The translations under genes and the position numbers were made by a program. From assembly GCA_042408215.1 (NCBI GenBank), contig JAYFMW010000010.1:111963-175962 (forward strand): a stretch of DNA of 64,000 bases. Reading direction: 5' to 3'. A model generated the notes under the pieces. That model was not told the origin of the DNA. It made no database searches and saw nothing but the letters and a program-made list of their open reading frames with translations. Below are positions 1,863-31,155 of this stretch, piece after piece. This stretch comes from Microcoleus sp. GTDB taxonomy: Bacteria > Cyanobacteriota > Cyanobacteriia > Cyanobacteriales > Microcoleaceae. How positions within the stretch are numbered: position 1 is the stretch's first letter; each line of letters begins with the position of its first letter.

Positions 1863-2945
1863 CTAAAGCTGAGTGCAACTTTTGGCCGCCGCCGCCTGTT
1901 GCCGCATCAGCTTAGCAGTGTTACAAGCAGGTTGGGAAACCGTTAAACTCGATGTCCCAGCCCCCTGAGCCAACAACTGAGATGGTGGCTTTAAACTGAT
2001 ATTTTTAGGCTGTTTCTCTGCCATTTTAGTCGAAAACTGCGGTGCTGATTGCAAAAACTTTTCGATGGGAATTCCCCAACTCGATCGCACCATTAACTCC
2101 CGCATTGGTTCACAAGGTTTCGAGCCATCCTGAAACACATAAGGATCTCCCCAAAGCGGATAAGCGTGCATTCCATTGACAGCTACCACCTCACCGGCCA
2201 AATTCAGCACCGGGCCACCGCTCATCCCTTTTTCAATCTGATTGTCATAACCCAGTTGATAGCCATCTTCGAGGGATTTTTCAGGTATGAGCGATACTCG
2301 TCCGTGAGTAAATTTCCATCCTGCTGAATCTGATTTGTTAGCCTCAAAAGGAAACCCGGCAGCATATACTTTGTCCCCTTCTTTAAGCGCTGAAGAACTT
2401 CCCAATATACCTATTTTATAGTCGGATTTGGTACTGCTAAACTGCAAAAGTGCTAAATCTTTACCCGCAAATTGAGTTGGCAAAAATCGGGTAGCAGAGT
2501 GAATTTTACCGTCTGGAGTTTGGATGCGATAGGTTTCTCCTGACTGCAATACGTGGTCGTTTGTAATCGCAGTATAAACTTGTTCTTCCCGCTGAATGAT
2601 AATCCCCGATCCCCAATTATCTCCCGAAAACACTTTCACAGTAATGGAACGAGCTTTCTGAAACATCGCTGTTTTGGCTAAATCTTCCGCCCTCTGGGGA
2701 AGCGGTTGTTTCTGGTTCTCCCCTGACAATGGTTTTAGGGGTTTCGCGGGCAAATTCAGCGGTTGAGTCGCTGGCGACTTCATAGGTGGCTTGCTGAGTT
2801 GAAATGTCGATCCTTGAGGTTGCTGTGGTAACTCTGTGCGGACAATTTCTGCGGCAGAGAAACCTCGACTGTGTACTTGAACTGCTAGGACCGTCAACAC
2901 ACCAGCAGTACAACTAAAAAATACTAGGGAAACCCAATTCATCAA
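1863..2945 (-). CDS. trypsin-like (S1) serine protease without PDZ domain
   Basis: Hydrophobic N-terminus; catalytic triad motifs TNDHV, KDLAL, GMSGGP. Confidence 0.88.
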   Translation of the reverse strand: MMNWVSLVFFSCTAGVLTVLAVQVHSRGFSAAEIVRTELPQQPQGSTFQLSKPPMKSPATQPLNLPAKPLKPLSGENQKQPLPQRAEDLAKTAMFQKARSITVKVFSGDNWGSGIIIQREEQVYTAITNDHVLQSGETYRIQTPDGKIHSATRFLPTQFAGKDLALLQFSSTKSDYKIGILGSSSALKEGDKVYAAGFPFEANKSDSAGWKFTHGRVSLIPEKSLEDGYQLGYDNQIEKGMSGGPVLNLAGEVVAVNGMHAYPLWGDPYVFQDGSKPCEPMRELMVRSSWGIPIEKFLQSAPQFSTKMAEKQPKNISLKPPSQLLAQGAGTSSLTVSQPACNTAKLMRQQAAAAKSCTQL

Positions 2946-3069
2946 AGTTACATAATTTAGGTAATATCAAATCCGGTAGCATCAGAATTATTCAGATCTC
3001 TATTCTCTCCCTCTGTGTCCTCTGTGTTCTCTGCGGTTAAATCATTCCGATACAACGGTCAACGATCTA

Positions 3070-3224
3070 ATACCAATTTAATAGGTCGTTGCACATATTC
3101 CAATCCCCCTAAATCCCCCTGAATAAGGGGAGTAGGGGTTGACTTTGAGAAGAATCTTGTCCCCCCCTTATTAAGGGGGGTTAGGGGGGATGAAATTCTA
3201 TGGAGCCTCACAAAAAATTGGTAT
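3070..3224. repeat. MITE-like element with ATACCAATTT termini and C/G-rich hairpin core
   Basis: Inverted homolog at 62259-62413. The same CCCCCTAAATCCCCC..GGGGGG(C/T)TAGGGGGGAT core occurs at 6722-6802, 9834-9935 and 13476-13575. Confidence 0.75.
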
Positions 3225-3229
3225 GAGTC

Positions 3230-3790
3230 TTACCAAACAGGAGTATCAGACTGCGAATTCGGCTGACTTTCTACAGCAGCCTGTTCGAGATATTCGCTCA
3301 TATCTATATAAACACGAGACGTGCTTTCATTGAGCGGCCCAGAAGCGCGGACGCGCACCGCCAGTAGACTGTTTAATACTTGAGTTGGATCGCTACCTCC
3401 TTTGAGAGTGAATAGCAATCCAATGCAATTACCTCCTTCGCGATCGGCAACACAAACTACTTGCTGGTTGTTCATCATACCAGTAGTCAGGTAGTTCAGT
3501 TTTTGATTTCGGAAGTATTGCTGAAATCTTGCAGATACTTCAATACAGCGCCGTTCTGGACTGTAGCCCGCATCGCGGAAACGATCGGAAGTCCACCGAA
3601 TCACAGGTACGTCACCCCGATTAGTCCGAGCAATGGTGGTGGGAGCGCCGTTGCTCGTACCGCAGACAAATGCTCTGGTTTGAAGGGTGGTTTGAGCGCT
3701 AGCATAAGTCCCGATCGCACTTACAGCAAATGCGATCGATCCAGCGGCAAAAATCGATCTCAATAGCTTGTGTTTTTCAATCATTATCAC
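3230..3790 (-). CDS. COP23 domain-containing secreted protein
   Basis: Signal peptide, then FVCG..PTTIART.RG.VPVIRW.S..F..GY.PERRC.EVS.RFQ..YLTTG..N.Q.VVC..C..LLFTL pattern. Confidence 0.85.
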   Translation of the reverse strand: MIMIEKHKLLRSIFAAGSIAFAVSAIGTYASAQTTLQTRAFVCGTSNGAPTTIARTNRGDVPVIRWTSDRFRDAGYSPERRCIEVSARFQQYFRNQKLNYLTTGMMNNQQVVCVADREGGNCIGLLFTLKGGSDPTQVLNSLLAVRVRASGPLNESTSRVYIDMSEYLEQAAVESQPNSQSDTPVW

Positions 3791-3993
3791 AACTCCTTGT
3801 GTTCAAAATTAACAGTTATAGGACGGCAAAAAAAAACCGGTTTCTCGGAAAAAACGTCGATATATGCGAGAGATACGAAGGCAGAAACCGGGTTTTTGAC
3901 CGTGGGTTCAGGACTGAGTTAAAAACTTAAAGGTAGAAACAATAATTTTTTTGAATTCTACCTTCTAAATCTCTAGTTTTCTGCATTCAAAAG

Positions 3994-5829
3994 CTACCAT
4001 TCCTTTTCGGAAACAGGCGGGTTATTGATGAGAGACTCAGGAGTTCCTGACTGCATATTTCTCGCATCCACCGGCGAAGTACCCGGACGGCAAATCGGCT
4101 TACCCTGCACGTATAGTGGATCTGGCGGGCGGATGTTGCTGGCTTCATCGGTTTCGCAGACGATCGATACTGTGACAGGATTGTTATTATTAGCAGTTTC
4201 CGTCAAAAACACCGCTCCCACATAGGCTTTCTGGTTGGGGTTCAGAGGAATAGCATAGTGAAATGCTCCCCTAGTAGTGGTGTGAATCGCAAAGTTGAAC
4301 TTCGCCATCGGAAGTTGAATGTTAAAAGAGCGTTGCAGCAAACTGATAGTACCGGTAAATGCACCATTGCGCGTGCGGAAGGTTTGCTGGGCGCGAATTA
4401 AGGCTTGAAGTGCTGATTCCGCTCCTGGCGATGTAGCCTGTCGCACCGCTTGAGGTGCTGGCTGACTGCGCGGCTCTGGTTTTGGCGCTGGTGTGGGCCT
4501 TGGTTGCTTTGCTTCTAGGGAGTTATTGGGTGCTGGACTTGTTTGAGCAATAGTCGGGGCTGGCCGCTGTGGCTCCACTCTATCAACTGGGTTTCTCGGT
4601 AAAGATATTCCCAGTCCGCCGTTGAGCGCCTGTTGGAAGCCGTCTTCATTCCCCGATGCTCCATCCAGGGATGCTGCTTTTTGAGCGTCCTCATTGGCTC
4701 CTTCGCTGTCCCCGACTATGCGGCGCACTTCGCTGCGACGGTTGTACCCAACGCTGCTGTTGGGAGCTAGGCGGATGGCTTGGGCTATGTCGGTGTTGGC
4801 TCCTATGTAGTCTTTGATTTGAGCTCGGCTGACGCCCCGCAGGCCGTAGGCATCTGCAAAGGTAGAATTGATTTGGATAGCTCGATCGAAATCGGCGATC
4901 GCTTCTTTATGATTTCCCAATTGAGCGTTGCTAGCACCACGAACGCGGTGAGCTTCGGCTAATTGGGGATTGTTTTGGATAGCTTTGATGGCATTTTCTA
5001 GAGCTGCTCTATAATTTTTTTGAGCGAAATTGGCGTAAGCTAAACCGTTGAAAACATCGGCGGAGTTTTGATTGAATCGCAGTCCTTGGCTGAAGTCTGC
5101 GATCGCCCCTTGATAATTTTGCCGTTTGAGTTTTTCTTTGCCTTGTTCGGCGTAAGCTTTAGGAGCGAGTTCGACAAAGGTGTTGATAGGAATTCCCAAG
5201 TTCACCCACGCTTTCGTGATTGTATCTTCTGTACTCCCCTCTGTACGTCCGTGAATGCCAATCACACGGCCACGAATATCGAGAATTGGCCCTCCGCTCA
5301 TTCCCTGACGAGTTGGGTTTGTATAGATTAATTCATAGCCGTCATTTACCCGTTCGCGAGCTGAAATTTGTCCTGCTGTCATCTGACGGATCTGTCTTGT
5401 AATAGTTTCCCCTGGCTTTGGCCAGCCGGAAACGTAGATTTGTTCTCCTACGGTAGCTGTTTTAGAATCTCCCAATTGTGCTATCTCGTAAATGCGGTCG
5501 CTGACAAAGGGCACGATCGCCAAATCGACTCCCGGTAATTGGATAATGTTATTGCTGTCCACTCGGTAGGAAGTGCGATCGGGCGCGACAATCTTTGATT
5601 CACCCCCACCCACCATTACGTGTTTCGCAGTCAGCACATAATAGGTACTTCCTTCCCTAGCAATAATTATCCCTGAACCCTGATTTTTTCCTTCGATTAA
5701 TACTGTAATTTGCTCAGCAATTTTATTGACTTGTTCTGCTGTTTGTGCTACAGCATTTTGACTTTGTACGATCGCAATTGTTGCACCGATCAGGGCTGCT
5801 GAAAGTCCGTATTTAAACCTAATTGTCAT
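3994..5829 (-). CDS. trypsin-like protease + TPR repeats + C-terminal type IV pilin-like (G/H) domain
   Basis: TAKHV/VDLAI/GMSGGP triad; about 5 TPR motifs; Pro-rich linker; ALIRAQQTF...AYVGAVF...SIVCE...C tail. Start moved to ATG 5829 (GGAG upstream) because the longer ORF runs into a REP. Confidence 0.8.
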   Translation of the reverse strand: MTIRFKYGLSAALIGATIAIVQSQNAVAQTAEQVNKIAEQITVLIEGKNQGSGIIIAREGSTYYVLTAKHVMVGGGESKIVAPDRTSYRVDSNNIIQLPGVDLAIVPFVSDRIYEIAQLGDSKTATVGEQIYVSGWPKPGETITRQIRQMTAGQISARERVNDGYELIYTNPTRQGMSGGPILDIRGRVIGIHGRTEGSTEDTITKAWVNLGIPINTFVELAPKAYAEQGKEKLKRQNYQGAIADFSQGLRFNQNSADVFNGLAYANFAQKNYRAALENAIKAIQNNPQLAEAHRVRGASNAQLGNHKEAIADFDRAIQINSTFADAYGLRGVSRAQIKDYIGANTDIAQAIRLAPNSSVGYNRRSEVRRIVGDSEGANEDAQKAASLDGASGNEDGFQQALNGGLGISLPRNPVDRVEPQRPAPTIAQTSPAPNNSLEAKQPRPTPAPKPEPRSQPAPQAVRQATSPGAESALQALIRAQQTFRTRNGAFTGTISLLQRSFNIQLPMAKFNFAIHTTTRGAFHYAIPLNPNQKAYVGAVFLTETANNNNPVTVSIVCETDEASNIRPPDPLYVQGKPICRPGTSPVDARNMQSGTPESLINNPPVSEKEW

Positions 5830-5985
5830 ATGATTCTCCATGCCTAATCTGAAGGAATATTTTTTGTGCTTGAGCGACTTATAGCATTTCTCAGAGTCTG
5901 GTAGGGACACGGCTCTTGGAGTGTCCCTACAGCCGTCTGCTGTATTTCATCCGATTGAAAACCGCTATATTTATCCAGATAATTT

Positions 5986-6552
5986 TCACCACAAAGGACG
6001 CTCAGGCTCAGGTTCGCCTTTGATGCTGCTGGGAGATGCGGGAGTCGCGAAAATATTTCGATCGCCTGGAACTGCGACTGTTGGGGGAAACCCGTTTAGC
6101 CAATGAATATAAACAGGAAATATTGGCACTTTTTCATGGGATTGTGAGAGTTGAATGTCCGAACCCCAAAGAGGTGGCAATTGCTCATACAAATCACTTC
6201 CTAATTCAGGATTTAGCACCTTTTCCGCAGAGAAACTACCACCTTGAATGATGGTGCAAAAAGCTCTTGGCTGGCTGCTATCAGTAGGTTGAACGCAATC
6301 TTTCTGCAATTTCTCTGCCATGTTTTCGCATTGCGAACGAGAATTAATTCCTAAAACTTGGAAATCCTCGGACACCCACCTAATTACTGGTATATTGCCC
6401 TGGGCTGTTTGAGCTATGATTGCTGGCTCCTCATTAATTGTACCGCAAAAAAAACTTAATTCTTGAGCGTAGCTGACACTACTCAAACTAATTGTGATTC
6501 CCAAAGTAAATGCTAATGTTGTGGGAATTGAATTTAATACTTTAAGTTTCAC
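5986..6552 (-). CDS. divergent COP23-like secreted protein
   Basis: Signal peptide; FFCG...PAIIAQT.QG.IPVIRWVS..F...C N-terminal half matches the neighbouring COP23 proteins. Confidence 0.7.
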   Translation of the reverse strand: MKLKVLNSIPTTLAFTLGITISLSSVSYAQELSFFCGTINEEPAIIAQTAQGNIPVIRWVSEDFQVLGINSRSQCENMAEKLQKDCVQPTDSSQPRAFCTIIQGGSFSAEKVLNPELGSDLYEQLPPLWGSDIQLSQSHEKVPIFPVYIHWLNGFPPTVAVPGDRNIFATPASPSSIKGEPEPERPLW

Positions 6553-6663
6553 AAATCACCTCCTTTGCCCTAAACAACTCTCTCATATTTCAGGATATTT
6601 GAGAAATACAGCAGATGGCAGGTTTATAGGTACTATTAATATCCCCGTAGGGCAGGGCACTGC

Positions 6664-6864
6664 CCATTGGTGTCAACTTAAGCCTGAAAGCCCTGAGAAA
6701 TCTGGTTTTTACCTGAGTCTAGATCCCCCTAAATCCCCCTTAAGAAGGGGGACTTTGAGAAGACTCTTGTCCCCCCCTTGGGAAGGGGGGCTAGGGGGGA
6801 TCTAGATTTAATAGTCAAACAACAGTCTCTGACTGGGTTTGACCTTAAGTTGACACCTATGGGC
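6664..6864. mobile_element. MITE-like element with CCCATTGGTG(T/A)CAACTTAAG terminal inverted repeats
   Basis: 20-bp near-perfect TIRs; second copy at ~9774-9996. Confidence 0.75.
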
Positions 6865-6925
6865 ACTGCCGTGTCCCTACCATATTTCATCCGATGAAAA
6901 ACTGCCATACCACCCAAAACTCATC

Positions 6926-7540
6926 TTAAAAAAGTGGGTTGCTAGCATCAGATTCCACAGGCTGCGGGGATGCAGATTCTGCGGGTTGGGTTTGGAGATA
7001 TTCGCCCATGTCGATGTAAAGTCGATCGTTCATTTCGACATAAACTCGGCGAGAAGGCGCGTTTTCGTTGAGTGAATTTGCGCTAGCTCGCTCGCGCAAA
7101 TTCACCAGTCGTTTTAATGTATCTCGCGCATCGCTGCCCGGTTTAATTGTAAATAACAAGCCGTTGTTTGGCAAGTCGCTGGCACAGTCGCCGCCCTTGG
7201 TCTGGGAAACGCAAACTACAGGTTGTCGGTTGATAACTCCTGTTGTCAGGTATTTGAGCATTCCGGCTTTGTGATACTGTTGAAATCTGCCAGATACCAG
7301 TTCGCATCGGCGCTCAGCATCGAATCCAGACTCTGAGAAACTATTAGAAACCCACTTAATTACTGTGACATTGCCGCCTTCTGGTCTTTGCAAAATAGTT
7401 GCTGGCTGACCTCCACTTTGGCCACAGATAAAAGAGCTTGCGGTTTGGGCGGGAGTCGGACTGCTAGGGACAATAGTTGTAGCAAGTGCGATCGCACTTC
7501 CAGTAATTAGCGATATCAGTGACTGAAGTTTCATTGGCAA
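6926..7540 (-). CDS. COP23 domain-containing secreted protein
   Basis: Same conserved Cys/Trp pattern as 3230-3790. Confidence 0.85.
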   Translation of the reverse strand: MPMKLQSLISLITGSAIALATTIVPSSPTPAQTASSFICGQSGGQPATILQRPEGGNVTVIKWVSNSFSESGFDAERRCELVSGRFQQYHKAGMLKYLTTGVINRQPVVCVSQTKGGDCASDLPNNGLLFTIKPGSDARDTLKRLVNLRERASANSLNENAPSRRVYVEMNDRLYIDMGEYLQTQPAESASPQPVESDASNPLF

Positions 7541-8042: not shown

Positions 8043-9734
8043 TTAGAACAGGGGTTCCAGTTTAGGAGTTGGGGCATTGGGGAGAGAGGGCGAGGGTTGT
8101 GGCGTTGCTGCCGGCTCGCTACTATCAGATGGGGGTCTAAAAAGGTCGTCAGGAGCTGGTGTTGGTTGGGGGCTGGGGGCTTGGCGGATGGAAATTTCAA
8201 TGTCTTGAATTTGACGATCGCACTCTGCTAAACGAGCTTTCACTTGGTCAGCAACGAAGGAATCGGGAGCAATTGCTTTGAGTTTGTCTGCTGCTTGAGT
8301 CCACGCAGCTTTCTGTTTTGATAATTCGGTTTCTTTTCGCGCATTGGCTGCGATCGCCAGAGCTTCTTCTAATTGCTTCTGAGCTTGTTGTTCTCTGGTC
8401 AAATGCGCTTCCATCGCCGTCAACTCGCTTTGATAGGAAGGTAACAGCTTTTGGGCGTCGGGGTAGACTTTGGCCGTTGGCGGAATACTTGATAGTTGGT
8501 CGATCGCGTTTTTCAGGCGATCGCGAGCCGTCTGCAACTCTTGGTCTGTTTGAGCATTTTGCCCTAAAACACGGGCGTCAGCAGCCTGTTTGACCGCGCT
8601 GTTGTAACTTTCGTTAAAGGGTTTATCCGCAGCACAGTTGTTCAGAATCCCGCATAAAAAACCGATGCGAGGCGACTCCAGACTAACAATCCCACCTACT
8701 AGCAGCAGAGTTGGTAGGACAATCAGGGCGATCGTTTTCCATCGAGATGTACGATCGGGGATTGGAAGCTGTGGATTTCGATGATAATTTACAGGCTGGT
8801 ATGGATTGACGGGATTTTGACTCTCAGTAGAAAGTTGAGTCGGAGGTAGTCCAGGATCGGAACTCACTTCAGTTTTTGATGAACTCATAATAGTTTTTCT
8901 TTGTGTTTGGCTATTATCGAGAGCATTTAATACTTCTCTCGCTGACTGATAGCGATCGCTCGGTTTTTTCTCCAACATCCTATCAAGTATCCCAGCCACT
9001 GTGTCGCTGACATTCGCGTGCGATCGCCACTCCCACTCCGCATCATAATTAATCAAACTATTTGGTTCTTTACCAGTTAACAAGACGATCGCCGTCACAG
9101 CCAAAGCATACAAATCGCTATTCGGGTAACACTCGCCACCCCGCAACTGTTCCGATGGACAATAAGCTGCTTTTCCCACCTGGGTAGGTTGGTGAGAATT
9201 AGCAACACCACCGCCAGTTGCGAGCTGTGTTTCCGCATATTTAACCACCCCGAAATCAATCAGCACCGGTTTTGGTTTACCATTTGGCAGCATGATATTA
9301 TCCGGCGAAATATCTCGGTGAATAATCCCTTTTCCGTGAATATATTGGAGGACTTCCAGAAGTTCCCGTAGCCATTCAACGATATCTTTTTCAGAAAATG
9401 TTTGACCTTTCCGTAAATCTCCGTAAGTTTGACCGTTGACAAATTCCTGAACAATAAACAAGCGGCTATTTTCCTCAAACCAATCCATAAACTCTGGGAT
9501 TTGGCGGTGATTTAGCTTGGATAAAATCTTGGCTTCTCGCTCAAATAATTCCCTAGCTTTTCGCAATTCCTCTGGATTAGTATTTCTAGGAGCAAACTCC
9601 TTGAGAACGCAGTTATTTCCTTGTTGATTATCTAACGCTAAATAAGTGCGACCAAATCCACCTTGACCCAGAATGTGGTCAATTAGGTAGCGGTTTTTAA
9701 TCAAAGTTCCAGCCGATAGTTCTGGTAATATCAC
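8043..9734 (-). CDS. membrane Ser/Thr protein kinase
   Basis: GQGGFG, VLKE, HRDISPDN, DFG; a single TM segment (IALIVLPTLLLVGGIV); helical C-terminal domain. Confidence 0.93.
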   Translation of the reverse strand: MILPELSAGTLIKNRYLIDHILGQGGFGRTYLALDNQQGNNCVLKEFAPRNTNPEELRKARELFEREAKILSKLNHRQIPEFMDWFEENSRLFIVQEFVNGQTYGDLRKGQTFSEKDIVEWLRELLEVLQYIHGKGIIHRDISPDNIMLPNGKPKPVLIDFGVVKYAETQLATGGGVANSHQPTQVGKAAYCPSEQLRGGECYPNSDLYALAVTAIVLLTGKEPNSLINYDAEWEWRSHANVSDTVAGILDRMLEKKPSDRYQSAREVLNALDNSQTQRKTIMSSSKTEVSSDPGLPPTQLSTESQNPVNPYQPVNYHRNPQLPIPDRTSRWKTIALIVLPTLLLVGGIVSLESPRIGFLCGILNNCAADKPFNESYNSAVKQAADARVLGQNAQTDQELQTARDRLKNAIDQLSSIPPTAKVYPDAQKLLPSYQSELTAMEAHLTREQQAQKQLEEALAIAANARKETELSKQKAAWTQAADKLKAIAPDSFVADQVKARLAECDRQIQDIEISIRQAPSPQPTPAPDDLFRPPSDSSEPAATPQPSPSLPNAPTPKLEPLF

Positions 9735-9773
9735 TCTCTTGATTAACCTCTTGTAACTGGTTCCTAGGCTGTG

Positions 9774-9996
9774 CCCATTGGTGACAACTTAAGACTAAAA
9801 CCCTTGATAAATCTCGTTTATATGCCGAGCCTAGATCCCCCTAAATCCCCCTTAAGAAGGGAGTAGGGTGTGAGTAGGGGGTGAGGAAAGAGAAGACTCC
9901 GGTTCCCCCCTTCTTAAGGGGGGCTAGGGGGGATCTAAGTTTAATAGTTAAGCAGCAGTCTGTGGATGGGTTTGAACTTAAGTTGTCACCAATGAG
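9774..9996. mobile_element. MITE-like element, second copy of the 6664-6864 family
   Basis: CCCATTGGTGACAACTTAAG...CTTAAGTTGTCACCAATGAG termini and the same core. Confidence 0.75.
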
Positions 9997-10029
9997 CACA
10001 GCCTAGGAACGAGTAGACTACAAAAACCT

Positions 10030-13000
10030 TTAACCAACTTGAGTTAGCCGCGTACCGCACTTAGCACAGAATTTCGAGCTAGTTGGATTTTTGTGGCCGC
10101 AGCTAGTACAAAACACAAAATCTTGCTGAGGTACTGTCGGCGGTTGAATTGGCGCTGGCGAAACACCGCCAGGAGGATTAATGACAGTAGTAGTAGTATA
10201 AATTCCGTCCAATTTCTGAGTGACTCCGGTTTCATTTGCTAGAGGCGAAGTTGGATTTAAACTACCAGCCCCCGGTGGCAAAAACTTGTAAGTTTCTATC
10301 ACCTCTTGAATAATCTTGACCTCTCGTTTATAAACAGGACTATCTTTTCCTCCTTCTTTATCTAATTCCGTCTCCCGCACATCAAGATATGCTGTCAATT
10401 GACCGTATAACTGTTGTTTTTGTGGCACTGTTTCCGCCCCATTCAGGATTGCAGTCACCTGTTTTTGAATCTCTTCCTTATCAGGACGACAGGCCACAAC
10501 TGCCAAAACTTGCACCGTTTCTTCCCAGCTAGAAGCAAGATCTACATTCTCTTGACCCAGCACAGTTTTTACCGTGTAGCGGATCGCTTTTTCCTTCGTA
10601 TTGCGGTTTTCTTCTGGTCGCAAAACCCGTAATGCTCGTGCTTGCACTACCAATTTTAAAATTTTCTCATCCTCTGGAAATACATCCCAAAAAGGCGCTT
10701 CTTTTTGAATATGAACTGGGATAGGAGCATCTTTGCTTTCTCCCCGTGCTTGTGCTCTTTTTGCTTGGATTGATTGGCCTTTCCAATCTTGATAAGATTG
10801 TTGCAATTCCCGCATTCCTTCAATACAGCGCAGCGAAAAACCGCCAACTTCTTGCACAAAAACAATCCGGTGGCGTTCCGCTTCTCCCAGCGGGGTAATT
10901 GCATCGCTACTACCCACCCGTTCTCGGATCAAAGGAATTAATTTGATGGCGGCTGCTTCAGTGCTGTTACGCCCACCAACCAGGGCTGCTTTGGTATTGA
11001 GTGCTGGCGTAAAGCCCGCATCTTTGCCCCTCATTATCGGCTCGGAAAGCAAAATTAGGGGTTTAGATTTATTGTAGGCGATCGCCAATTGACTGCGGAT
11101 GTCTGTTTCATCATTTTTAAACATTTTGTACAGTCCATCACAGGCTGCCAAATCTCGCTTCAAGCGACTGCTGTTAGGTGCATTATTGATGACTAACCGC
11201 GTTTTTTCATCAATAATTTCCTTGAAATCTGGATCTTGCACATCCTGCAATTGCGGCAAATCAAACAGTCGCATCACCTCATCCGCCTCCCGGTTTTGTT
11301 TCCACATCGGACTAGCTTCTGCGAGCACTTGCTTCGACAAATTGCTGCAAGTTCCGTCCATCCCCAATTCATACTTGCTTTTCGCACCTTCAGAAGCACC
11401 TGCTAATTGCTCGATCGCATCTCGGTACAAATCATTTAGCTGTTGACGGTCAAACAATTTGATACCATTAATTACCAACACATCAGCACTACTTGCTTGT
11501 TGGTCTGCTGCTTTTTGAAAGTCATCACGATTTTGGCGCAACTTTTGATTTAAGCGAGCCAAACGGCTTTCTAACTCTGTTAAATGCTCTTGCAGCCTGA
11601 CAATTACTTCCAATCCCAAGGATCTCGATTTGCGCTGAATAATTGCAATCAAACTCCCCTCTAACCCGCTGATAGCCGTAGCACAATACTTTTCCATAAT
11701 GTCTTGTTTGCTCAAACCAAACTGCTCTTGGGAGTGTCTAATATCTTCCAAACCCTTTTGGTATTGTTGCTGGAAACGAACCTCATTTGGCTCCCAAACT
11801 TTTTCGGCTTCCCGGCGAAACTTTTCCACAGCATTTTGAAAAATCTGTCGCACTGTGGTGATAAAAGCATCAGCAAATTTCGGCCCTTTGTTGCGGTCTT
11901 CAAGAATCGTATAAAACTCAGCTTCTAGGGTTTTGCGTCCTTCTTTGATAATCCGGTTGCGGTTGTCATACATTTTTTGCAAGTAATCGCCATGTAGTCG
12001 CTCGTCGGGACTCATTTCACGCAGGTGATCGTTGCGATATTCCTCAACTTTTTTCTGCAAGTAATTGACAAATTCTAGAATTTTGCCTTTTTCCGATCCG
12101 AAAATACCCAAGAATCCTTGTTGAGTGGATTGCAGTTTGTTATCTGCATTAATTTCATTACGGATACTGTTTACCCAGTTGGAAAGTTCTGCTAAATAAG
12201 ACTTATCGCCCGCAGCACTCAAATCTGTCAACATTTCCATTTCTGTCAGCCGAATCCGCTTGAGGTCACTTTGTACAACCTCCAACAAATTGGGAACTAA
12301 TACCACAGATTCGTTCAGCCACCAACTCACAAAATCCGCCGCTAGCCGATTGGATAAAGATGTGCGAATCTGGGCGATGGGAATTTCAATTGTGGACAGC
12401 CCAAAACTCATAAATTGTTTGGAATAGCCGCGGCCACCAGGGTCTGCTTGGGCCCAAGAACCTTTAATATTATCTCGGATCGATCGCTTGTGGGGAGCAA
12501 AATCTGAGGTCAAGTCCAGAAAGATATTCTGACCGATCATTTCCCGAATTTGGTCGAGGGGAAATTCAGTTTCACCGTTTTTAGTTCCGACTAAATAAGT
12601 GAAGTCAAAAGCAGGTCTTTTGTCGCGGATTTCATCGATTAAACCAGCACTATACTGCACTGAATACTCTGTACGGTAGTCGGAGAAATAGCTCAATTCC
12701 ATTAGGGCTGCGTAGCCGTTAGCTAAAACCCGATCGCCTACATTGATACCAGCAAAAGCATTAGGCATCGGCACAATGGCTGTAGTGGTAGGACTTGACT
12801 GTCCTTGTAGCCACTTGCGGACAGCATAGCCGATATCGATGAGCATCCCGCTGCCGGTACCGCCAGAAATTGAGCCGGTGATAAACACGTTTACGGAGTT
12901 ACTGTTTACCTTGACGTTATATTTGTCCAGCATAAAAGTGTCGTGACCTTTTACGCGATCGCACGCTGAATTAAATGCTTGTTTAATCTTATGATAGTTG

Positions 13001-13383
13001 TGAAAAAATGCAAATCGACCGCAGGCACGAATCTGTCCGGCTCCCGCTTCTAAAGCCGTCATATTTCGCTCTAATTCATTGGGAAACCAAGCTTCAATCC
13101 AGGGGAAGTTGTCCATGTTGGACATGATATTTTCAACTTCATTACCGCTGACTTTAGCAAAGTATTTCTCGTTGTCCTTAAATGGAGTTCCACCCGCACC
13201 AGGATTATTTAGTTTGTATTCTTTGTCTGTGTCAATTACCAGAAAACTAATAATCGGAAAATTCTTCAAACTCCCATAAGTTTCTTCTACTAAACGGCGC
13301 ACTCTTGCCAGCACTTCATTACCCGTTCCTCCTACTCCGATTAAAACAGTAGGAACCATACTTTTTTCATCAACAGTAGCCAT
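10030..13383 (-). CDS. tubulin/FtsZ-like GTPase (Tubulin_2-type) with long helical region and C-terminal zinc ribbon
   Basis: VLIGVGGTG, IDTD, GAGQIR and SISGGTGSG signature; CTSC...CAKC at the C-terminus. Confidence 0.88.
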   Translation of the reverse strand: MATVDEKSMVPTVLIGVGGTGNEVLARVRRLVEETYGSLKNFPIISFLVIDTDKEYKLNNPGAGGTPFKDNEKYFAKVSGNEVENIMSNMDNFPWIEAWFPNELERNMTALEAGAGQIRACGRFAFFHNYHKIKQAFNSACDRVKGHDTFMLDKYNVKVNSNSVNVFITGSISGGTGSGMLIDIGYAVRKWLQGQSSPTTTAIVPMPNAFAGINVGDRVLANGYAALMELSYFSDYRTEYSVQYSAGLIDEIRDKRPAFDFTYLVGTKNGETEFPLDQIREMIGQNIFLDLTSDFAPHKRSIRDNIKGSWAQADPGGRGYSKQFMSFGLSTIEIPIAQIRTSLSNRLAADFVSWWLNESVVLVPNLLEVVQSDLKRIRLTEMEMLTDLSAAGDKSYLAELSNWVNSIRNEINADNKLQSTQQGFLGIFGSEKGKILEFVNYLQKKVEEYRNDHLREMSPDERLHGDYLQKMYDNRNRIIKEGRKTLEAEFYTILEDRNKGPKFADAFITTVRQIFQNAVEKFRREAEKVWEPNEVRFQQQYQKGLEDIRHSQEQFGLSKQDIMEKYCATAISGLEGSLIAIIQRKSRSLGLEVIVRLQEHLTELESRLARLNQKLRQNRDDFQKAADQQASSADVLVINGIKLFDRQQLNDLYRDAIEQLAGASEGAKSKYELGMDGTCSNLSKQVLAEASPMWKQNREADEVMRLFDLPQLQDVQDPDFKEIIDEKTRLVINNAPNSSRLKRDLAACDGLYKMFKNDETDIRSQLAIAYNKSKPLILLSEPIMRGKDAGFTPALNTKAALVGGRNSTEAAAIKLIPLIRERVGSSDAITPLGEAERHRIVFVQEVGGFSLRCIEGMRELQQSYQDWKGQSIQAKRAQARGESKDAPIPVHIQKEAPFWDVFPEDEKILKLVVQARALRVLRPEENRNTKEKAIRYTVKTVLGQENVDLASSWEETVQVLAVVACRPDKEEIQKQVTAILNGAETVPQKQQLYGQLTAYLDVRETELDKEGGKDSPVYKREVKIIQEVIETYKFLPPGAGSLNPTSPLANETGVTQKLDGIYTTTTVINPPGGVSPAPIQPPTVPQQDFVFCTSCGHKNPTSSKFCAKCGTRLTQVG

Positions 13384-13615
13384 AAGACTCCTCCTTTTTG
13401 TTTTTAATTAACCTTGCTGTCAGCTTAATGTCAAACGTAGTACCAGCTTATTGTCTTCTTTCTACATTCCTCTCGATCCCCCCTAACCAAGAGGGCGGGC
13501 ACGGGGGCACCGCCCCTACAAGGGGGGAACCGGAGCATTCAAAGTCCCCCTTCTTAAGGGGGATTTAGGGGGATCGAGACTCGAATAAAAGCGACATTTA
13601 TCGTTGATTTGAGGC

Positions 13616-14530
13616 TTAACAACCATCACCAAAAATTGGCAAACCAACTAATTTCCAGATAATGCTAGGCGTACTTGCAGTCCAGAAAAAAGCATTTCCC
13701 AAAGCCGCCTGACCTGCTACAGTCATGTTCATCTTCATAGTGCCTTGAAACAACCACCGATCGAGCGGCATCGTCAGCGTCCACATCAAAGCAATCCAAG
13801 CAGCACCCAACCAAAAAATCACCCATTTAATGTTACTATTGAGCTTGGGAAATATTTTTTCTGTAAATGAAGTATTGAGATTAACATCGGCACCGGAAAT
13901 ATAAATTCCTCCTGTTTCTAAAGTAGCTTGTTTTAGCGGCTCGAAACTTTTACCTCCGAAGGTAATGCCATTGATTTTAACTTTTTGAGCTGCGGCTTCG
14001 CTGACACTTTGCGGGGAAAGTTCAATGCCAGCATCGCTAACAATCACAATTTCGCGACAGCTATTTGGCACGGTTTTAAAAGCATTTAATGCCTGCCGAA
14101 TAGGAACATCTAGGCTGTCTTGGGGAGGTTCTGGTTGGATAGATTTAGGCAGATTGGGGTCTTGCAAAGCTCGGACTAATTCTGCTTCTACCTTTTTGGT
14201 ATCTGAACTAAAGTTACTGGTTAATGCTGGAGCTTTGCCGCCGCCAATCCCAAAGACTTGAATTGTATTTGGGTTTGTTCCTAATTTAGAATTTACCTCT
14301 AAATAGGCTTTCACTGCGGCTACTTCTTGCTGCATAATTGTACCCGGAGCATTGAAGGCTTGCGGCTGGTAGGTGCTGCTGCTTAAATCGAGGGCGATCG
14401 CCACGGCAATATTTGGTCTACCCAACCCGAATATGCCAAACAGTGCAGCAGCAATTAAACAGAAGCACAGCACAATTAATGGTCTCTGAAATAAAGGATT
14501 TTGCCACAGCGGGCGTTGATTTCTAATCAC
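13616..14530 (-). CDS. membrane-anchored von Willebrand factor A domain protein
   Basis: MIDAS DLSSS and VSD; N- and C-terminal TM segments. Confidence 0.85.
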   Translation of the reverse strand: MIRNQRPLWQNPLFQRPLIVLCFCLIAAALFGIFGLGRPNIAVAIALDLSSSTYQPQAFNAPGTIMQQEVAAVKAYLEVNSKLGTNPNTIQVFGIGGGKAPALTSNFSSDTKKVEAELVRALQDPNLPKSIQPEPPQDSLDVPIRQALNAFKTVPNSCREIVIVSDAGIELSPQSVSEAAAQKVKINGITFGGKSFEPLKQATLETGGIYISGADVNLNTSFTEKIFPKLNSNIKWVIFWLGAAWIALMWTLTMPLDRWLFQGTMKMNMTVAGQAALGNAFFWTASTPSIIWKLVGLPIFGDGC

Positions 14531-14566
14531 CGATCGACCTATAGTAGTTTTAACTTAATTGGCAAA

Positions 14567-16186
14567 CTATTTAACAGCATCGAACTGATATTTAGACCCC
14601 GGAGGGCCGTCTTTACCTTCGACAGTTGTCACTAAGGGAATCTCTTTGAACAGGTCAAATTCCTTAGCAGTTCCCGATATCAGAGTTCCTTGGGTGAGGA
14701 ACTTGACTGTTCCCTCGCGGGTAGGATTGCTGCTGATTGCTGCTGTTAAAGCTTGGGTGGCATCGAAAGCAGTTGCAGTTCGCCAACTGACTCGTCCTTT
14801 CCACATCTCGGAGGCTTGTTTGGAAAAAGGATCGTCTTTTTCCCACCTCCAAGGAACGGCTAGCACTAAATCTTTAATTGCATCTCCTCCTTTGATTAAA
14901 GTAGTAGGATTATACAGTTCACTGCCTCCCATTAATGCTAAAGGTGGGGATGTATCTTTGTTGGCTTGGGCGATCGCGATCGCCTGTTCTACTTGGTCTT
15001 TGCTCATCGCCATAAATACCACATTTGCTCCCGCTTTGCTCGCATCAGCGACAGCAGATTTGGCATCAAAAGTTGCACCAGCTTTGATGTCAACTTCTTT
15101 GACAATTTTGCCGCTAGCTTTTGGCACTTCCAGGACTAATAGTTCCTTGAGTTGCTTGCTGTAAACGCTGTCGGAGTTGTAGAAAATTGCGATCGCGGCT
15201 GGCGAGTGAGTTTTATTAGCATAATTGGCGACTGTTTCCCCAAGTTTTTGGAGGTAAGTTTTCAGCATCTCATCGGTTTTTTCCAGCAACTTGGTTAGTT
15301 TCAAGGTCGCTTTGTTGGAAGAGTCGATAGAAACGCTGGAACTGACAGGCGAAATTGCTGCTAATCCTGCGGTTTCATAGGTTTTGATAGCATCTTGAGC
15401 ACCGCTGTCAATGCCGTGTCCCAAAACTCCCAAAACGCTGGGAGAGTTAACCAAGTCTTGGGCGATCGACACAGTTTTGCCAACTTCGTCATTAACAATT
15501 ACAATTTCTAATAATCGACCGGGAACCGTTGGACTTTTGTTGAATTGCTCTTGATATAAAGCTGCTCCTCGAAGCACTTCTTTAGCTGCATCAGCACTGG
15601 CACTGATGGGAACTACTACGGCTATTGTTAGGGGATTTCCTGTTTTTTGAGCCGTCGCATTGTTGAGGTAAATTTTAGTTTCTGGGTCGTTGGGGTCGGT
15701 TTTCGCAGCTTGTTGATACTTGGCGATCGCATCATCCCAATTTTTGCCTACAAATGCAGCAGCCCCAGCTTGTTTTTCAGCATCAGCTTTGCCGCCTGTT
15801 AGCAGAATTTTTTCCCCTTGACTAATCAGCGCGGCGTTGACTGCTTTAGAGCTGAGGAATTCACCTGATGGAGCAATAGTTGTTGTGGGACTAAAAGAAG
15901 GTGTGCCTCCACCCGTTGACCCGGAATACTCTGGCGTTTTGTCTGAAAACGCTTTGTACAAACCAAATCCGCCACCACCGACGACTAATACTCCTGCTAC
16001 AGCCATCAGAATTTTTTTGATTGGCAATTCACGTCCTGAACCCCCATTTCCTGTAGGAACCATAGCCTCTTTCGGCAAGCCGCACATCATGCAGATTGAC
16101 CCGTTGTTGTCACAGGGTGGGTGGGGGCCAGTACCGTTATATTGGTCTGGACTATTTTTGGGTTCGCCGTCGCAGCTCCAACTCAT
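14567..16186 (-). CDS. membrane-anchored branched-chain amino-acid-type (LIV) substrate-binding protein with N-terminal Cys/His motif
   Basis: N-terminal C..H..C..CxxC, a TM helix, a TPR-like segment, then IAVVVPI..EVLRGA..VLGVLGH..VSWRTATAFDA. Confidence 0.8.
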   Translation of the reverse strand: MSWSCDGEPKNSPDQYNGTGPHPPCDNNGSICMMCGLPKEAMVPTGNGGSGRELPIKKILMAVAGVLVVGGGGFGLYKAFSDKTPEYSGSTGGGTPSFSPTTTIAPSGEFLSSKAVNAALISQGEKILLTGGKADAEKQAGAAAFVGKNWDDAIAKYQQAAKTDPNDPETKIYLNNATAQKTGNPLTIAVVVPISASADAAKEVLRGAALYQEQFNKSPTVPGRLLEIVIVNDEVGKTVSIAQDLVNSPSVLGVLGHGIDSGAQDAIKTYETAGLAAISPVSSSVSIDSSNKATLKLTKLLEKTDEMLKTYLQKLGETVANYANKTHSPAAIAIFYNSDSVYSKQLKELLVLEVPKASGKIVKEVDIKAGATFDAKSAVADASKAGANVVFMAMSKDQVEQAIAIAQANKDTSPPLALMGGSELYNPTTLIKGGDAIKDLVLAVPWRWEKDDPFSKQASEMWKGRVSWRTATAFDATQALTAAISSNPTREGTVKFLTQGTLISGTAKEFDLFKEIPLVTTVEGKDGPPGSKYQFDAVK

Positions 16187-16469
16187 TTTTGCTACCTTTT
16201 TTTTACCCTTTTGGGTATTGTACAGCTTGACATCTGTCTTGAGAAAGGTTAGACGAGCAAAAATACTAAATCTTTAAAATATGCCGCAGGGAATCGCCCC
16301 TCCCCGTGAGTTATTCCCCAAGACACTGGTCAATCGATTTTAGATTTGAGATTTTAGATTGGAGAATTGACCCCACGGATGAATCCGGGGGCTTGTGACC
16401 CAATTGATGAAGGTCAACAGCGCTATCCTAGTAGTTATATTCCTCAAACCCGATCGACCCGGAGGCCCC

Positions 16470-18474: not shown

Positions 18475-21400
18475 ATGTCACAGCATAATTATTCTCTCCC
18501 AAAGTCAGCAATTAGAGACAACCGCCACCGCGAAACTGTGGGCGATTTTTTGAAAGCCAAGGTTGAGGAAAACTCAACCTTGTCAATTGTTTCTGCTTAC
18601 TTTACAATTTATGCATTTGATGCCTTGAAGGAACAACTTCTAGGCATTAAAAACTTGAAATTCCTGTTTGGCGAACCGCGCTTCATCAAGTCCCTTGACC
18701 CCAGTAAAACCGATAAAAAGGCATTCCAAATTGAGGATGAGGGCTTGCAGCTACAGAATCGGTTGCAGCAAAAACGGGTTGCGAAAGAATGTGCAGAATG
18801 GATTGAGAAAAAAGTGCAGATACGGTCGGTCAAGCAATCTAATTTACTGCACGGCAAAATGTATCACATTGCTCATAACGGAAGCGAAAATGCTATTATG
18901 GGCAGTTCTAATTTTACCATGCGGGGACTGGGATTAGGCAGGAAAAACAACAATATTGAACTCAATTTAGAAGTAGATAGTAAACGAGATAGCCACGACA
19001 TTAAAGCCTGGTTTGATGAACTCTGGAATGATGCCGAACTGGTCGAAGATGTCAAACAAGACGTGCTCCTGTACCTAGAGCAACTTTACCAGAATAATTC
19101 TCCTGAATTTATCTACTACAAAACTCTGTTTCATATCTTCGAGACTTTTCTAGATGACCTAGAAAAAAGCGATATTCTCAGCGAACAGCTACACCTATTT
19201 GATACAGAAATCTGGAAATCTCTATTTGAATTTCAAAAAGACGGAGTTAAGGCCGCTATCAATAAAATCCGACGATATAACGGGTGTATTATTGCTGACA
19301 GCGTTGGTTTAGGTAAAACATTTGAAGCTCTAGCGGTGATTAAATATTTTGAACTTCGCAATCAAAAAGTTTTGGTTCTTTGTCCCAAAAAACTCCGCGA
19401 GAATTGGACTGTATATCTAGCACAGAACAATAGCGAACTGAATCCTTTTCTTAAAGACGGCTTTAACTATGCAGTCCTATCTCACACCGACTTGAGTCGT
19501 GACTCTGGTTACTCTGGGGACATTAATTTAGCAACGATTAAGTGGGGAAACTATGACTTGGTAGTTATTGACGAATCCCACAATTTCCGCAACAACATCA
19601 AGAGTAAACGGGACGAATTTGGCAATCTAATTAGAAAGAGTCGTTACGAAAGGCTGATGGATGATATTATCAAGAGCGGTGTCAAAACTCAGGTGCTACT
19701 CTTATCAGCAACTCCGGTTAACAATGATTTAAAGGATTTGCGGAATCAACTTTATTTTATCACAGAAGGTCGCGATGCTGCGTTTAGCGAATCGCTGGGA
19801 ATTGCTAGTCTGCGCGATACACTAGCTGATGCTCAGCGGAAATTTACCAAGTGGGCTAAGAAAAGTCGCGATCGCAAAACTAGCGAACTCCTGGAAGAAC
19901 TAAGTTCTGCTTTCTTCAAACTGCTTGACCAATTGACGATCGCCCGATCGCGCAAGCACATTCAAAAATACTATAAAGATGCGATCGCCCAATTAGGCGG
20001 CTTTCCAGAACGGCTCAAACCCATCTCCGTATTTCCTGACATTGACCTAGAGGGTGAGTTCATGTCCTACGAACAGCTTAACAGCGAAATTTCTAAATAT
20101 CAACTCTCGCTATTCAACCCTTCAAAATATGTCCTGTCGCCATACCGTTCAGTGTATGAAAATAAAACAGGGCGAAATTTCAGACAGAGCGATCGCGAAC
20201 GGTGTTTAATTGGTATGATGAAAGTCAATTTCCTGAAACGCTTAGAAAGCTCCATTCGTTCCTTTTCGCTGACAATGGAACGCACAATTAACAAAATTGA
20301 ATATCTAGAGAAAAAAATTCAAAACTTTCAGCAATTTCAGCAATCTCGCGAGGCTAACCAGACAGTTATTTTCAGCGATTTAATGATTGAAGACTTCGAC
20401 GATGAAGAGTTGCAAGATGCCATGCAAGTAGGTCAAGAGCTGATATTTCAAATGGCGCACCTCGATGTCAAAACGTGGTTAAAAGACCTGAAATGCGACA
20501 AGGAACAGCTTAAAAAAATTTACAATTATGCCCAAAGCATTTCTGTTGAACGGGATGCCAAGTTAGCTGAGTTAAAAGCACTAATCGCCGAGAAAGTCAA
20601 GCATCCTACGACTAACAAGCATGGCCAACCAAATCGCAAGGTTTTAGTCTTTACTGCCTTTGCAGATACGGCAGTTTATCTCTACGAAGGATTGCGGGAA
20701 TGGGCAACATTAGAATTGAAAATTAACCTAGCTTTGGTGACTGGTGGTTCGGCGAAAAATAAGACTACCTTTGGCAAAAATGAGTTCAATCGCGTCCTGA
20801 CAAATTTTTCGCCTTTCGCCAAGAAACGCGCTCAAATTCCATCTATGCCACAAGACGGCGAGATTGACCTATTAATTGCCACAGATTGTATTTCAGAAGG
20901 GCAAAATTTACAAGATTGCGATTATCTGATTAACTACGACATACACTGGAACCCAGTCCGAATTATTCAGCGGTTCGGTAGGTGCGATCGCATTGGCAGC
21001 CCCAACCATACCGTACAATTAATCAATTTTTGGCCGACAGAGGACTTGGATCGGTACATCAATCTGAAAAATCGAGTAGAAGCACGGATGGCATTAGCGG
21101 ATATTGCTGGTACATTTGAAGATAACCTGCTGGAGGCTCTTGAGATTCAAGAATTGATTGAGAGTGATTTGAAATACCGCGACAAGCAGTTGCTGCGATT
21201 GAAAGACGAGGTGCTGGATATCGAAGATTTCACCGAAAGTGTCGCCCTAACGGAATTCAGTCTCGATGATTTCCGAATGGAACTAGCCAAATACATTGAG
21301 AGCAACCGCAAACTACTCCAAGATGCTCCTTTAGGACTCTATGCAATAGTTCCAACTAACTCGGAGTACCCGATCATTGCTCCCGGCGTAAATTTTTGCC

Positions 21401-21786
21401 TCAAACAGAAAGGCGATTCTCTTGATAATAAAACTGTCAATCTGCTGCAACCATATTTTGTAGTTTACGTGGGAGAAAATCAGGAAGTGCGATTAAATTT
21501 TGCTCAACCCAAACAAATACTTGAAATATACCAGTTGCTGTGCGCGGGATGTACTGTTCCCTATGAAGAGTTGTGCAACTTGTTCGATCGAGAAACTAAT
21601 AATGGATTTGATATGAATTTGTATAACGATTTGCTTAAGCGGGCGGTTGATTCAATTGCAGGTATTTACAACAAGCGGCTCATCGACAATCTGCTGTCTA
21701 GCCGCCGTGCTGTGTTGGTTGAACAAGCGCATCAGGTTAAAGCAACAACGGATTTTGAACTGATTACTTGGTTGGTGATTAAATGA
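18475..21786 (+). CDS. PLD-like nuclease domain + SNF2-type (SF2) helicase
   Basis: HGKMY..GSSNFT..NIELN (HKD-variant PLD); [33 protein letters not shown]. Confidence 0.9.
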
Positions 21787-31100: not shown

Positions 31101-31155
31101 TAAACCCGCGATTGTTCGACCTGTAGAAGGAACGGCACCGGCTTTGAATCGATAA
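28134..31155 (+). pseudogene. UPF0182 family membrane protein, frameshifted near 28762
   Basis: WFQEVGY N-terminus in ORF 28134-28796; [32 protein letters not shown] and YVEPLYL in ORF 28747-31155. One extra base in AGT CGT C TGG ACA. Confidence 0.8.

Follow-up and report, generated by a model that had tools for sequence, protein, structure and literature searches.

How can a tubulin-like GTPase of the cytoplasm work with partner proteins whose outer domains lie in the periplasm? The question is raised by a locus in a 64,000-nucleotide stretch of Microcoleus sp. DNA (assembly GCA_042408215.1, contig JAYFMW010000010.1, positions 111,963 to 175,962), which we call the window and to which coordinates without a locus name refer. 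The locus encodes a GTPase of the FtsZl1 family. In the passages of Makarova and Koonin (2010, PMC2875224) used here, this family is defined, and proteins with a von Willebrand factor A (vWA) domain and a metal ion-dependent adhesion site (MIDAS), as well as kinases, are its frequent neighbours; reviewer comments there suggested transport or signalling and objected that a cytoplasmic protein cannot reach periplasmic partners. Since 2010 FtsZl1 has had no assigned function, and its ability to form filaments has been doubted. In the window its gene lies near that of a single-pass protein whose N-terminal Cys/His knuckle is predicted to be cytoplasmic. Knuckle protein and GTPase very probably work together in some way, a point with much better support than any particular output. 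More tentatively, at somewhat less than even confidence, we propose that the single-pass protein is a receptor which recruits FtsZl1 to the inner membrane face through the predicted zinc knuckle, where FtsZl1 would assemble and act on the envelope. The genes are as follows.

14567..16186, minus strand: single-pass receptor-like protein, 539 amino acids (knuckle, transmembrane helix, one TPR, LIV-type binding domain)
13616..14530, minus strand: membrane vWA protein, 304 amino acids
10030..13383, minus strand: FtsZl1 (Tubulin_2) protein of clade B, 1117 amino acids
8043..9734, minus strand: membrane Ser/Thr kinase, 563 amino acids

A preliminary description, made from the DNA alone, had read these genes as one four-gene module with the binding protein as an orphan receptor. 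The four co-oriented open reading frames (ORFs) are present with the limits it gave, all on the minus strand within 8043-16186, and their nearest named relatives are in Microcoleus and Tychonema (88-93% identity). The module itself has to be narrowed: three of the genes form the core, orthologues of the kinase are restricted to the Microcoleus group, and the vWA gene occurs in 18 of the 26 genomes with the same FtsZl1 clade. The receptor role is supported by the missing transporter, by a tag that tracks the FtsZl1 clade even where unlinked and by swappable outer domains. The overall interpretation, a ligand-triggered membrane-remodelling or conflict/signalling apparatus, is partly supported, with ligand triggering, membrane remodelling and conflict as conjectures.

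The receptor-like protein matches Peripla_BP_6 (E 1.5e-19) with one weak TPR, and hydropathy gives one transmembrane helix with the knuckle ahead of it, as had been described. No ABC permease or ATPase was found among the 32 of 38 window ORFs (at least 120 amino acids) scanned, the other six being transposase-like, PurE or short ORFs by eye; recurrent permease or ATPase genes are absent from the clade-B loci as well. Its parts are located here.

16076..16180, minus strand: Cys/His knuckle, residues 3-37, W-x-C...H...N...C-xx-C, predicted to be cytoplasmic and to bind Zn
15956..16012, minus strand: transmembrane helix, residues 59-77, by hydropathy
14672..15634, minus strand: LIV-type (Peripla_BP_6) domain with an altered pocket

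No Pfam family was found for the knuckle, which is single-copy in the source genome. Residues W3, C5, G7, K10, H22, N27, C32, C35 and L37 are invariant in all 22 aligned copies, and the putative Zn ligands C5, H22, C32 and C35 (CHCC) in 46 of 46; the ESM Atlas score for the region is 0.75. A knuckle search of 1.84 billion representatives gave 106 clusters, three of which (P0201, P0219, P0223) look like false positives. The full motif is present in 98 of the 106 representatives and a transmembrane helix follows the knuckle in 91. A Pfam scan of 98 representatives (eight short ones were left out) assigned LIV-type outer domains to 31, PsbP-like to five, PstS-like to four (one with OmpA) and COP23 to three, with one each of WD40, GUN4, Ppx-like, phosphonate-binding, ARC6-IMS, kinase and AAA_35. 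Knuckle proteins carry outer domains of at least 11 kinds. The helical ectodomain of the window kinase is found on 25 of the 106, with a profile made from kinases only (pairwise E 1e-11). In P0189 and P0209 the knuckle is joined directly to a kinase domain, and in P0195 and P0216 AAA_35 is followed by the knuckle and the three transmembrane helices of the vWA partner, without a vWA domain; these four fusions come without genomic context and could be miscalled genes. Read from sequence, the knuckle is a mobile tag, predicted to be cytoplasmic, that is carried by single-pass proteins whose outer domains can be exchanged. The knuckle-kinase and knuckle-COP23 proteins connect the kinase and COP23 neighbours in the window with this repertoire. 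A C-x-[FWY] terminus is found on 17 knuckle proteins.

Tubulin_2 scored above cut-off in 72 of 401 cyanobacterial genomes. We took 80 of the stronger matches with their flanks, leaving out weak matches of ~500 amino acids, and a quick tree of 82 GTPase domains together with gene maps gave three well-supported groups. The gene order is vWA(380)-FtsZl1-B7-MotB-like in clade A and binding protein-vWA(300)-FtsZl1 in clade B, the clade of the window. Clade A corresponds to the vWA-FtsZl1-B7-OmpA/MotB arrangement, the main cyanobacterial type in the passages of PMC2875224 used. Clade C includes a second FtsZl1 of the source genome, and in four of its six loci the gene after FtsZl1 encodes an N-terminal zinc ribbon, a transmembrane helix and a binding domain. 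This neighbour may be the counterpart of the knuckle receptor, built with another zinc tag. The second FtsZl1 (L003:9112-13673, contig C26 of the source genome G000) is 30% identical, with the zinc-ribbon/transmembrane/PstS-like gene 24 nt further on. There is also a fourth, more distant FtsZl1 type of ~915 amino acids. The B7 and MotB-like genes follow clade-A FtsZl1, for example at L046:11581-14062; we presume a resemblance of this pair to MotA/MotB or ZorA/ZorB, with no supporting Pfam match.

The distribution of the knuckle follows clade B. Twenty-six of the 401 genomes carry clade B (21 by tree, 5 by best BLAST match), and a knuckle model of 43 positions, built from 22 sequences of clade-B neighbourhoods, gives a strong match in 27: all 26 of these and one of the 375 others (G077). 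Among the 64 genomes with full-length Tubulin_2 the figures are 26/26 for clade B vs 1/38 for the rest. The preliminary description had set co-occurrence in other genomes as a check, and it lies far beyond chance, with Fisher values that are overstated because the genomes are kin. In 12 of the 26 genomes, from four lineages (g71 in four, g33 in six, g53 and g39), the knuckle gene is unlinked to the clade-B GTPase gene; complete g71 chromosomes have the GTPase, knuckle and vWA genes at three separate places. These unlinked cases, with the negative genomes, are the informative evidence for the association. Two clade-B genes are present in G279 together with two knuckle genes, both of which lack a LIV domain. 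In a second sample of 121 genomes of the window's family, ~26 of them also in the first sample, the strong knuckle was found in 17 of 18 core clade-B genomes vs 0 of 103 others, the one miss being a fragmented assembly. Conservation is high, at 54-70% identity across families. A knuckle nearly confined to genomes with the clade-B tubulin is likely a handle that recruits FtsZl1 to the membrane.

Weak knuckle matches were set aside in these counts: G261 (degenerate, with a Ppx-like partner), G339 (a 25-codon remnant), G419 and G443. A divergent FtsZl1 subgroup (~31-38% identical) in nine genomes of the family sample was excluded from the clade-B core, and at least one variant knuckle was missed by the knuckle model. 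At L097 (852-6385), a divergent FtsZl1 has two such neighbours, a LIV protein whose variant knuckle is shorter and a partner made of transmembrane helices only. In g71 (L029, L031, L032, L089) a type IV pilin gene directly follows the clade-B gene, and two g71 genomes have a chemotaxis-like operon directly ahead of the clade-B gene.

Solved homologues of the binding domain are LIV-type (transport) binding proteins. The pocket reads GHGIDSG in the window protein vs GHLCSSS in LivK, with Asp260 at the Ser and an insertion of ~10 amino acids. The Ser of LivK GHLCSS is presumably an amino-acid pocket residue, a role that we carry over from the LivJ pocket. On this assumption, the Asp argues against an amino-acid carboxylate as ligand, and the window domain lacks the canonical LIV amino-acid pocket. 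Most clade-B neighbours have the GHGIDSG-type pocket with the insertion; others keep the canonical GHNSS. LIV folds serve as receptor ectodomains elsewhere. The source genome also has a LIV fold fused to an AAA-type NTPase.

The vWA partner matches VWA_2 weakly (E 0.008). Two transmembrane helices are given by hydropathy and a third by alignment, and the resulting topology would be TM1, a periplasmic vWA domain, TM2, an invariant PLDRW loop and TM3. The MIDAS had been called intact: the D48-x-S50-x-S52 motif (DLSSS at 48-52) and D166 are in place, and members of the Microcoleus group have Asp where Thr is usual. C158 and C304 are invariant. Strong vWA(300) matches occur in 18 of the 401 genomes, all within the 26 clade-B genomes; a partner found solely there is dedicated to the system, though it was not found in the other eight. 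In G014 and G311 a version with transmembrane helices only adjoins the GTPase. A membrane module of three helices may then be the basic unit, with the vWA domain inserted optionally on the periplasmic side; the PLDRW loop of this module would face the cytoplasm beside the knuckle.

The GTPase matches Tubulin_2 (PF13809; E 9e-110 over the full model) and Zn_Ribbon_1 (E 3e-7), and hydropathy gives it no transmembrane helix. GTP-loop residues G18, G19, T20, G21, S171, G174, G175, T176, S178 and G179 are invariant in 132 sequences. We built an AlphaFold2 model from the alignment of these 132 sequences (mean pLDDT 86.5). In an unbiased structure search of 48161 chains, the top 17 rows all belong to the FtsZ/tubulin superfamily. 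The match to CetZ (3zid) covers 310 of 342 residues (Z 23.8, rmsd 3.8) spanning model residues 9-883, and tubulins align over ~345 residues (Z ~21) spanning 9-904, at 10-18% identity to solved CetZ, tubulin, TubZ and FtsZ structures. The FtsZl1 character of a long protein with a central coiled coil and a further C-terminal domain is found as helices 336-758 and domains up to 1032; in the model, some of this C-terminal region is the tubulin C-domain. The model divides the protein as below.

12385..13359, minus strand: first part of the tubulin fold, residues 9-333: GTPase domain with GVGGTG and SGGTGSG loops, H7, T7, H8, S7
11110..12378, minus strand: helical insertion, residues 336-758, at the predicted M-loop position
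10672..11109, minus strand: second part of the tubulin fold, residues 759-904: H9, S8, H10, S9, S10, H11
10288..10671, minus strand: extra domain, residues 905-1032
10045..10113, minus strand: C-terminal zinc ribbon behind a disordered linker

The preliminary description was right about the tubulin signature, the 1117 residues, the zinc ribbon and a long helical region; the last is an insertion within the fold and not a tail. A helix (276-289), a loop, a helix (296-311) and a strand (324-333) precede the insertion (336-758), and a helix (759-772), a strand (794-802), a helix (810-823), two strands (829-832 and 839-849) and a helix (857-879) follow it. This order, by which the names H7 to H11 were given with no residue-level alignment, matches H7, T7, H8, S7, H9, S8, H10, S9, S10, H11 and places the insertion at the S7-H9 loop. 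We take this loop to be the M-loop. The M-loop makes side contacts in microtubules. The model thus predicts a complete two-domain tubulin fold with ~420 helical residues inserted at the M-loop position.

In the passages of PMC2875224 used, T6-H7 and the C-domain were not identified and their presence in diverged form was left open; the 2023 survey (PMC9871819), in the part used, says that these proteins have no FtsZ_C or Tubulin_C Pfam domain. Our model favours tubulin elements that are present but displaced. A PDB sequence search with the GTPase gave no match, and the alignment gave only coiled-coil noise. Modelled alone (pLDDT 86.6), the insertion matched nothing in Foldseek at E <= 0.001 and no known fold reached Z >= 8, the best rows being chemoreceptor and SMC hairpins at Z 7.8. 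The dynamin, BAR, ESCRT-III and pore-toxin rows were weak and generically helical, and we discarded them as support for a membrane-bending role. Residues 905-981 (10441-10671) have a weak likeness to the RecA C-terminal domain (Z 8.8, rmsd 2.3, 61 aligned). The C-terminal zinc ribbon occurs in 89 of 119 relatives, with SHOCT or a helical repeat in most others.

The co-oriented block extends past the kinase by five more genes (1863-7540, by Pfam), listed here with a promoter-like site and two repeat elements.

1863..7540, minus strand: five accessory genes of exported proteins: COP23, COP23, trypsin-TPR-pilin-like, COP23, trypsin
16217..16245, minus strand: promoter-like site TTCTCA-17-TACAAT, 5' of the first gene, of putative function
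13458..13583, no strand assigned: dispersed inverted-repeat element, about half of the vWA-GTPase gap, with 517 BLAST pieces in the genome
9756..10014, no strand assigned: miniature inverted-repeat transposable element (MITE)-like element with 47-nt terminal inverted repeats, most of the GTPase-kinase gap

The kinase is a membrane kinase as described (Pkinase E 3e-41, one transmembrane helix at 334-352), with the catalytic motifs GQGGFG, K45, HRD and DFG and with the helical ectodomain common to knuckle proteins at 8190-8642. Its orthologue occurs in exactly 13 of 65 same-genus genomes, which are those with the core GTPase, and elsewhere in the family as two weak matches. The block was not found in 52 of the 65 genomes. 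Five same-genus genomes without the GTPase have no orthologues of the two downstream proteins tested, only paralogues of at most 50% identity. Two remnants survive on one contig of G339, 25 codons from the start of the first gene and ~280 nt of the last (L124:5843-5910 and G339:C36:127400-127675, the ends of the nine-gene block, whose middle is missing), and the 5' remnant runs into a broken transposase-like stretch. With these end remnants and the joint losses, the block appears to be kept or lost as a unit in the genus. Without the MITE-like element the GTPase-kinase gap would be ~37 nt. Further MITE-like or short dispersed inverted repeats lie between genes of the block at 6650-6876 and 3067-3227; the intergenic repeats have hundreds of related pieces in the genome, and relatives carry different elements in the same gaps. 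Ten named Microcoleus-group loci conserve the stretch with the promoter-like site ahead of the orthologous gene. The promoter/terminator scan gave 23 sites vs 20.3 expected from shuffles, no excess. No shared alternative-sigma motif was seen by eye among the listed sequences upstream of knuckle and COP23 genes, with no formal motif search.

The kinase and the downstream genes may be a separate matter. A three-gene FtsZl1 core and an independent kinase-COP23-trypsin cluster could simply share a Microcoleus mobile block, which we regard as doubtful and which bears on the kinase and downstream genes alone. The confinement of the kinase orthologue to the genus fits such a division, as do COP23 and trypsin paralogues abundant in genomes without the system and the 27 kinase-like ORFs of the source genome. 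The kinase and the three COP23 proteins also end in P-[LV]-[FW] (gene ends 8043, 6926, 5986, 3230), and the core proteins do not; only 8 of 5509 open frames in the genome have this end, four of them here. The P-[LV]-[FW] and C-x-[FWY] ends are possibly a C-terminal recognition signal. However, the kinase ectodomain is the second commonest knuckle ectodomain, and COP23 is found on 3 of the 106 as well. Within 8 kb of the GTPase in the 31 clade-B loci outside the Microcoleus group, kinase genes occur in 6, trypsin in 5, pilin in 5 and COP23 in 1, whereas all four are at 0 in 40 clade-A loci, in counts that include many short contigs, a clade A mostly of one family and one clade-A locus on the wrong ORF.

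Returning to recruitment of FtsZl1 by the receptor, we envisage the following steps. The outer LIV domain would bind a periplasmic small molecule, probably not a branched-chain amino acid. The three-helix vWA protein could be a co-receptor that clusters with the binding protein in a metal-dependent manner. Clustered knuckles may seed a head-to-tail FtsZl1 polymer under the membrane, formed in a GTP-dependent way, in which the insertion arm would block microtubule-type side contacts and space or bundle the filaments. The Microcoleus kinase may be a second receptor of the same set, tuning assembly by phosphorylation. The output would be a local envelope change, to which the trypsin-like, COP23 and pilin-like exported proteins would be coupled. 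In its fullest form, a receptor-tubulin pathway with interchangeable heads, a zinc-knuckle adaptor and a full tubulin polymer bearing a 420-residue M-loop arm, the proposal is rather unlikely.

Several points weigh against this proposal. Contact, metal binding, GTP binding and the polymer are all putative. G077 has a knuckle-LIV protein yet only a clade-A FtsZl1. The genomes behind the knuckle/clade-B count are kin, and with a knuckle model made from clade-B neighbourhoods the ~13 linked cases are partly circular. The vWA partner is missing from the matches in 8 of 26 clade-B genomes. PsbP-like, ARC6-IMS, OmpA and nuclease outer domains are not obvious ligand sensors, and no structural match of the insertion points to membrane bending. 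By eye and with no residue-level superposition, TSDFAP puts Pro297 at the usual T7/H8 catalytic acid, and FtsZ-like assembly-triggered hydrolysis may therefore be absent; the conserved D290, D294 and D304 nearby are candidate catalytic acids, and GTP hydrolysis may be slow, rewired or partner-dependent. RNA contigs from four runs are patchy over the region and maybe DNA-contaminated, and co-transcription is not readable from them.

Information could instead run outward. A standing FtsZl1 filament under the membrane, with the knuckle positioning periplasmic domains at a pole, septum or pilus base and with no ligand triggering assembly, has a modest chance of being right. Wall-binding or structural outer domains (OmpA, ARC6-IMS, PsbP-like, COP23) fit such an address tag, genes kept at three unlinked loci in small genomes look like housekeeping, and pilin genes lie near 5/31 clade-B GTPases outside the Microcoleus group vs 0/40 of clade A. 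The commonest outer domain is, however, a ligand-binding fold (31 of the 98 scanned), the kinase and AAA_35 NTPase fusions suggest signalling, and absence from 52 of 65 genomes of the genus fits an optional function.

An anti-invader role is marginally less likely again. Variable outer domains would sense a phage, a predator or a competitor, whereupon the tubulin assembly, with the kinase and the proteases, would respond by arrest, death or a barrier; such a role has been proposed for GAP1-N2 systems that contain tubulin. The passages of Kaur et al. (2020, PMC7159879) used here put related tubulins with vWA in predicted conflict systems. The patchy presence and loss as a block, with the 5' end in G339 cut by an insertion-sequence-like stretch and the two ends kept, would suit such a system, as would the variability of outer domains with NTPase and kinase fusions and a PLD/SNF2 helicase gene 2 kb away. 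Against this, PADLOC 2.0 returned 0 families for the binding protein, vWA protein and GTPase at E 0.01, and its matches of the kinase are of a kind common to kinases. Among neighbours of 46 clade-B loci, neither a GTPase nor GAP1 nor a toxic effector recurs, and both the identity across families and the retention of unlinked genes are unlike island-borne defence. Plain transport, in which a membrane-anchored solute-binding protein serves a distant ABC transporter and the FtsZl1 link is incidental, is very improbable: its fold has solved transport homologues and the 2010 authors held the neighbour sporadic (PMC2875224, passages used), but the knuckle tracks clade B though unlinked, the LIV domain is replaced by non-transport outer domains (G279, L026, L054) and the pocket is altered.

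Elsewhere in the window, at 18475-23309 (plus strand), the PLD/SNF2 helicase gene overlaps a 508-aa ORF by 4 nt. This ORF has a weak DUF4391 match over its first 230 residues and then sigma-70 (regions 1.2-4), apparently an in-frame fusion between the start of a defence-type gene and a sigma factor; L005 and L008 have a 1103-aa ORF at the same site. At 28134-31155 (plus strand) a UPF0182 gene appears as two overlapping ORFs matching consecutive parts of the profile, which suggests a frameshift. A 1964-aa subtilase with VWD, Calx-beta, DUF4114 and RTX calcium-binding repeats is encoded at 47999-53893 (minus strand).

If the proposal is correct in its fullest form, an outside signal would build a bacterial cytoskeleton on demand. 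FtsZl1 would then count among the tubulins as a complete branch able to form filaments, and not as a truncated outgroup. The 35-residue cytoplasmic tag on single-pass proteins would be a candidate bridge that answers the reviewer's objection about the periplasm, and the missing tubulin elements would, in the model, be present but displaced. The knuckle would also serve as a handle for annotating ~100 otherwise unrelated clusters of cyanobacterial membrane proteins as one pathway.

The triad itself has been known since 2010. Supplement 5 of PMC2875224, in the part used, contains LIV (536 aa)-vWA (298 aa)-FtsZl1 (1101 aa) in Arthrospira platensis and vWA (298 aa)-FtsZl1 in Nostoc punctiforme, and the authors judged the LIV-type neighbour sporadic; tll1020 of Thermosynechococcus elongatus appears in a table of that paper. 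The window operon is like these FtsZl1 operons in family, size, GTP-binding loops and MIDAS vWA neighbour; the passages of that paper compared make no mention of the knuckle or of ectodomain swaps. We found no experimental FtsZl1 study or description of the knuckle in the open-access literature, subscription journals being outside this scope. LivJ/LivK-type ABC binding proteins are of the same fold family as the window LIV domain, which differs by an N-terminal transmembrane helix behind a cytoplasmic knuckle, no transporter nearby and an altered pocket. Unlike the window GTPase, CetZ, tubulin, TubZ and FtsZ have no C-domain insertion of ~420 residues and no extra C-terminal domains, and it is apparently the window GTPase that has no acidic residue at the usual T7/H8 position. 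TRAFAC GTPase, GAP1 and FNIII, sought in the window and near the 46 clade-B loci with no genome-wide search, were not recurrent. In the passages of PMC7159879 used, GAP1-N2 systems resemble the window in a tubulin and coiled-coil protein, a protein with several transmembrane helices and an extracellular vWA domain, and small adaptor domains across variable partners; the knuckle behaves like their effector-associated domains. What the present analysis would add to these known systems is a knuckle adaptor with swappable heads and, from the model, a complete tubulin fold with an insertion at the M-loop.

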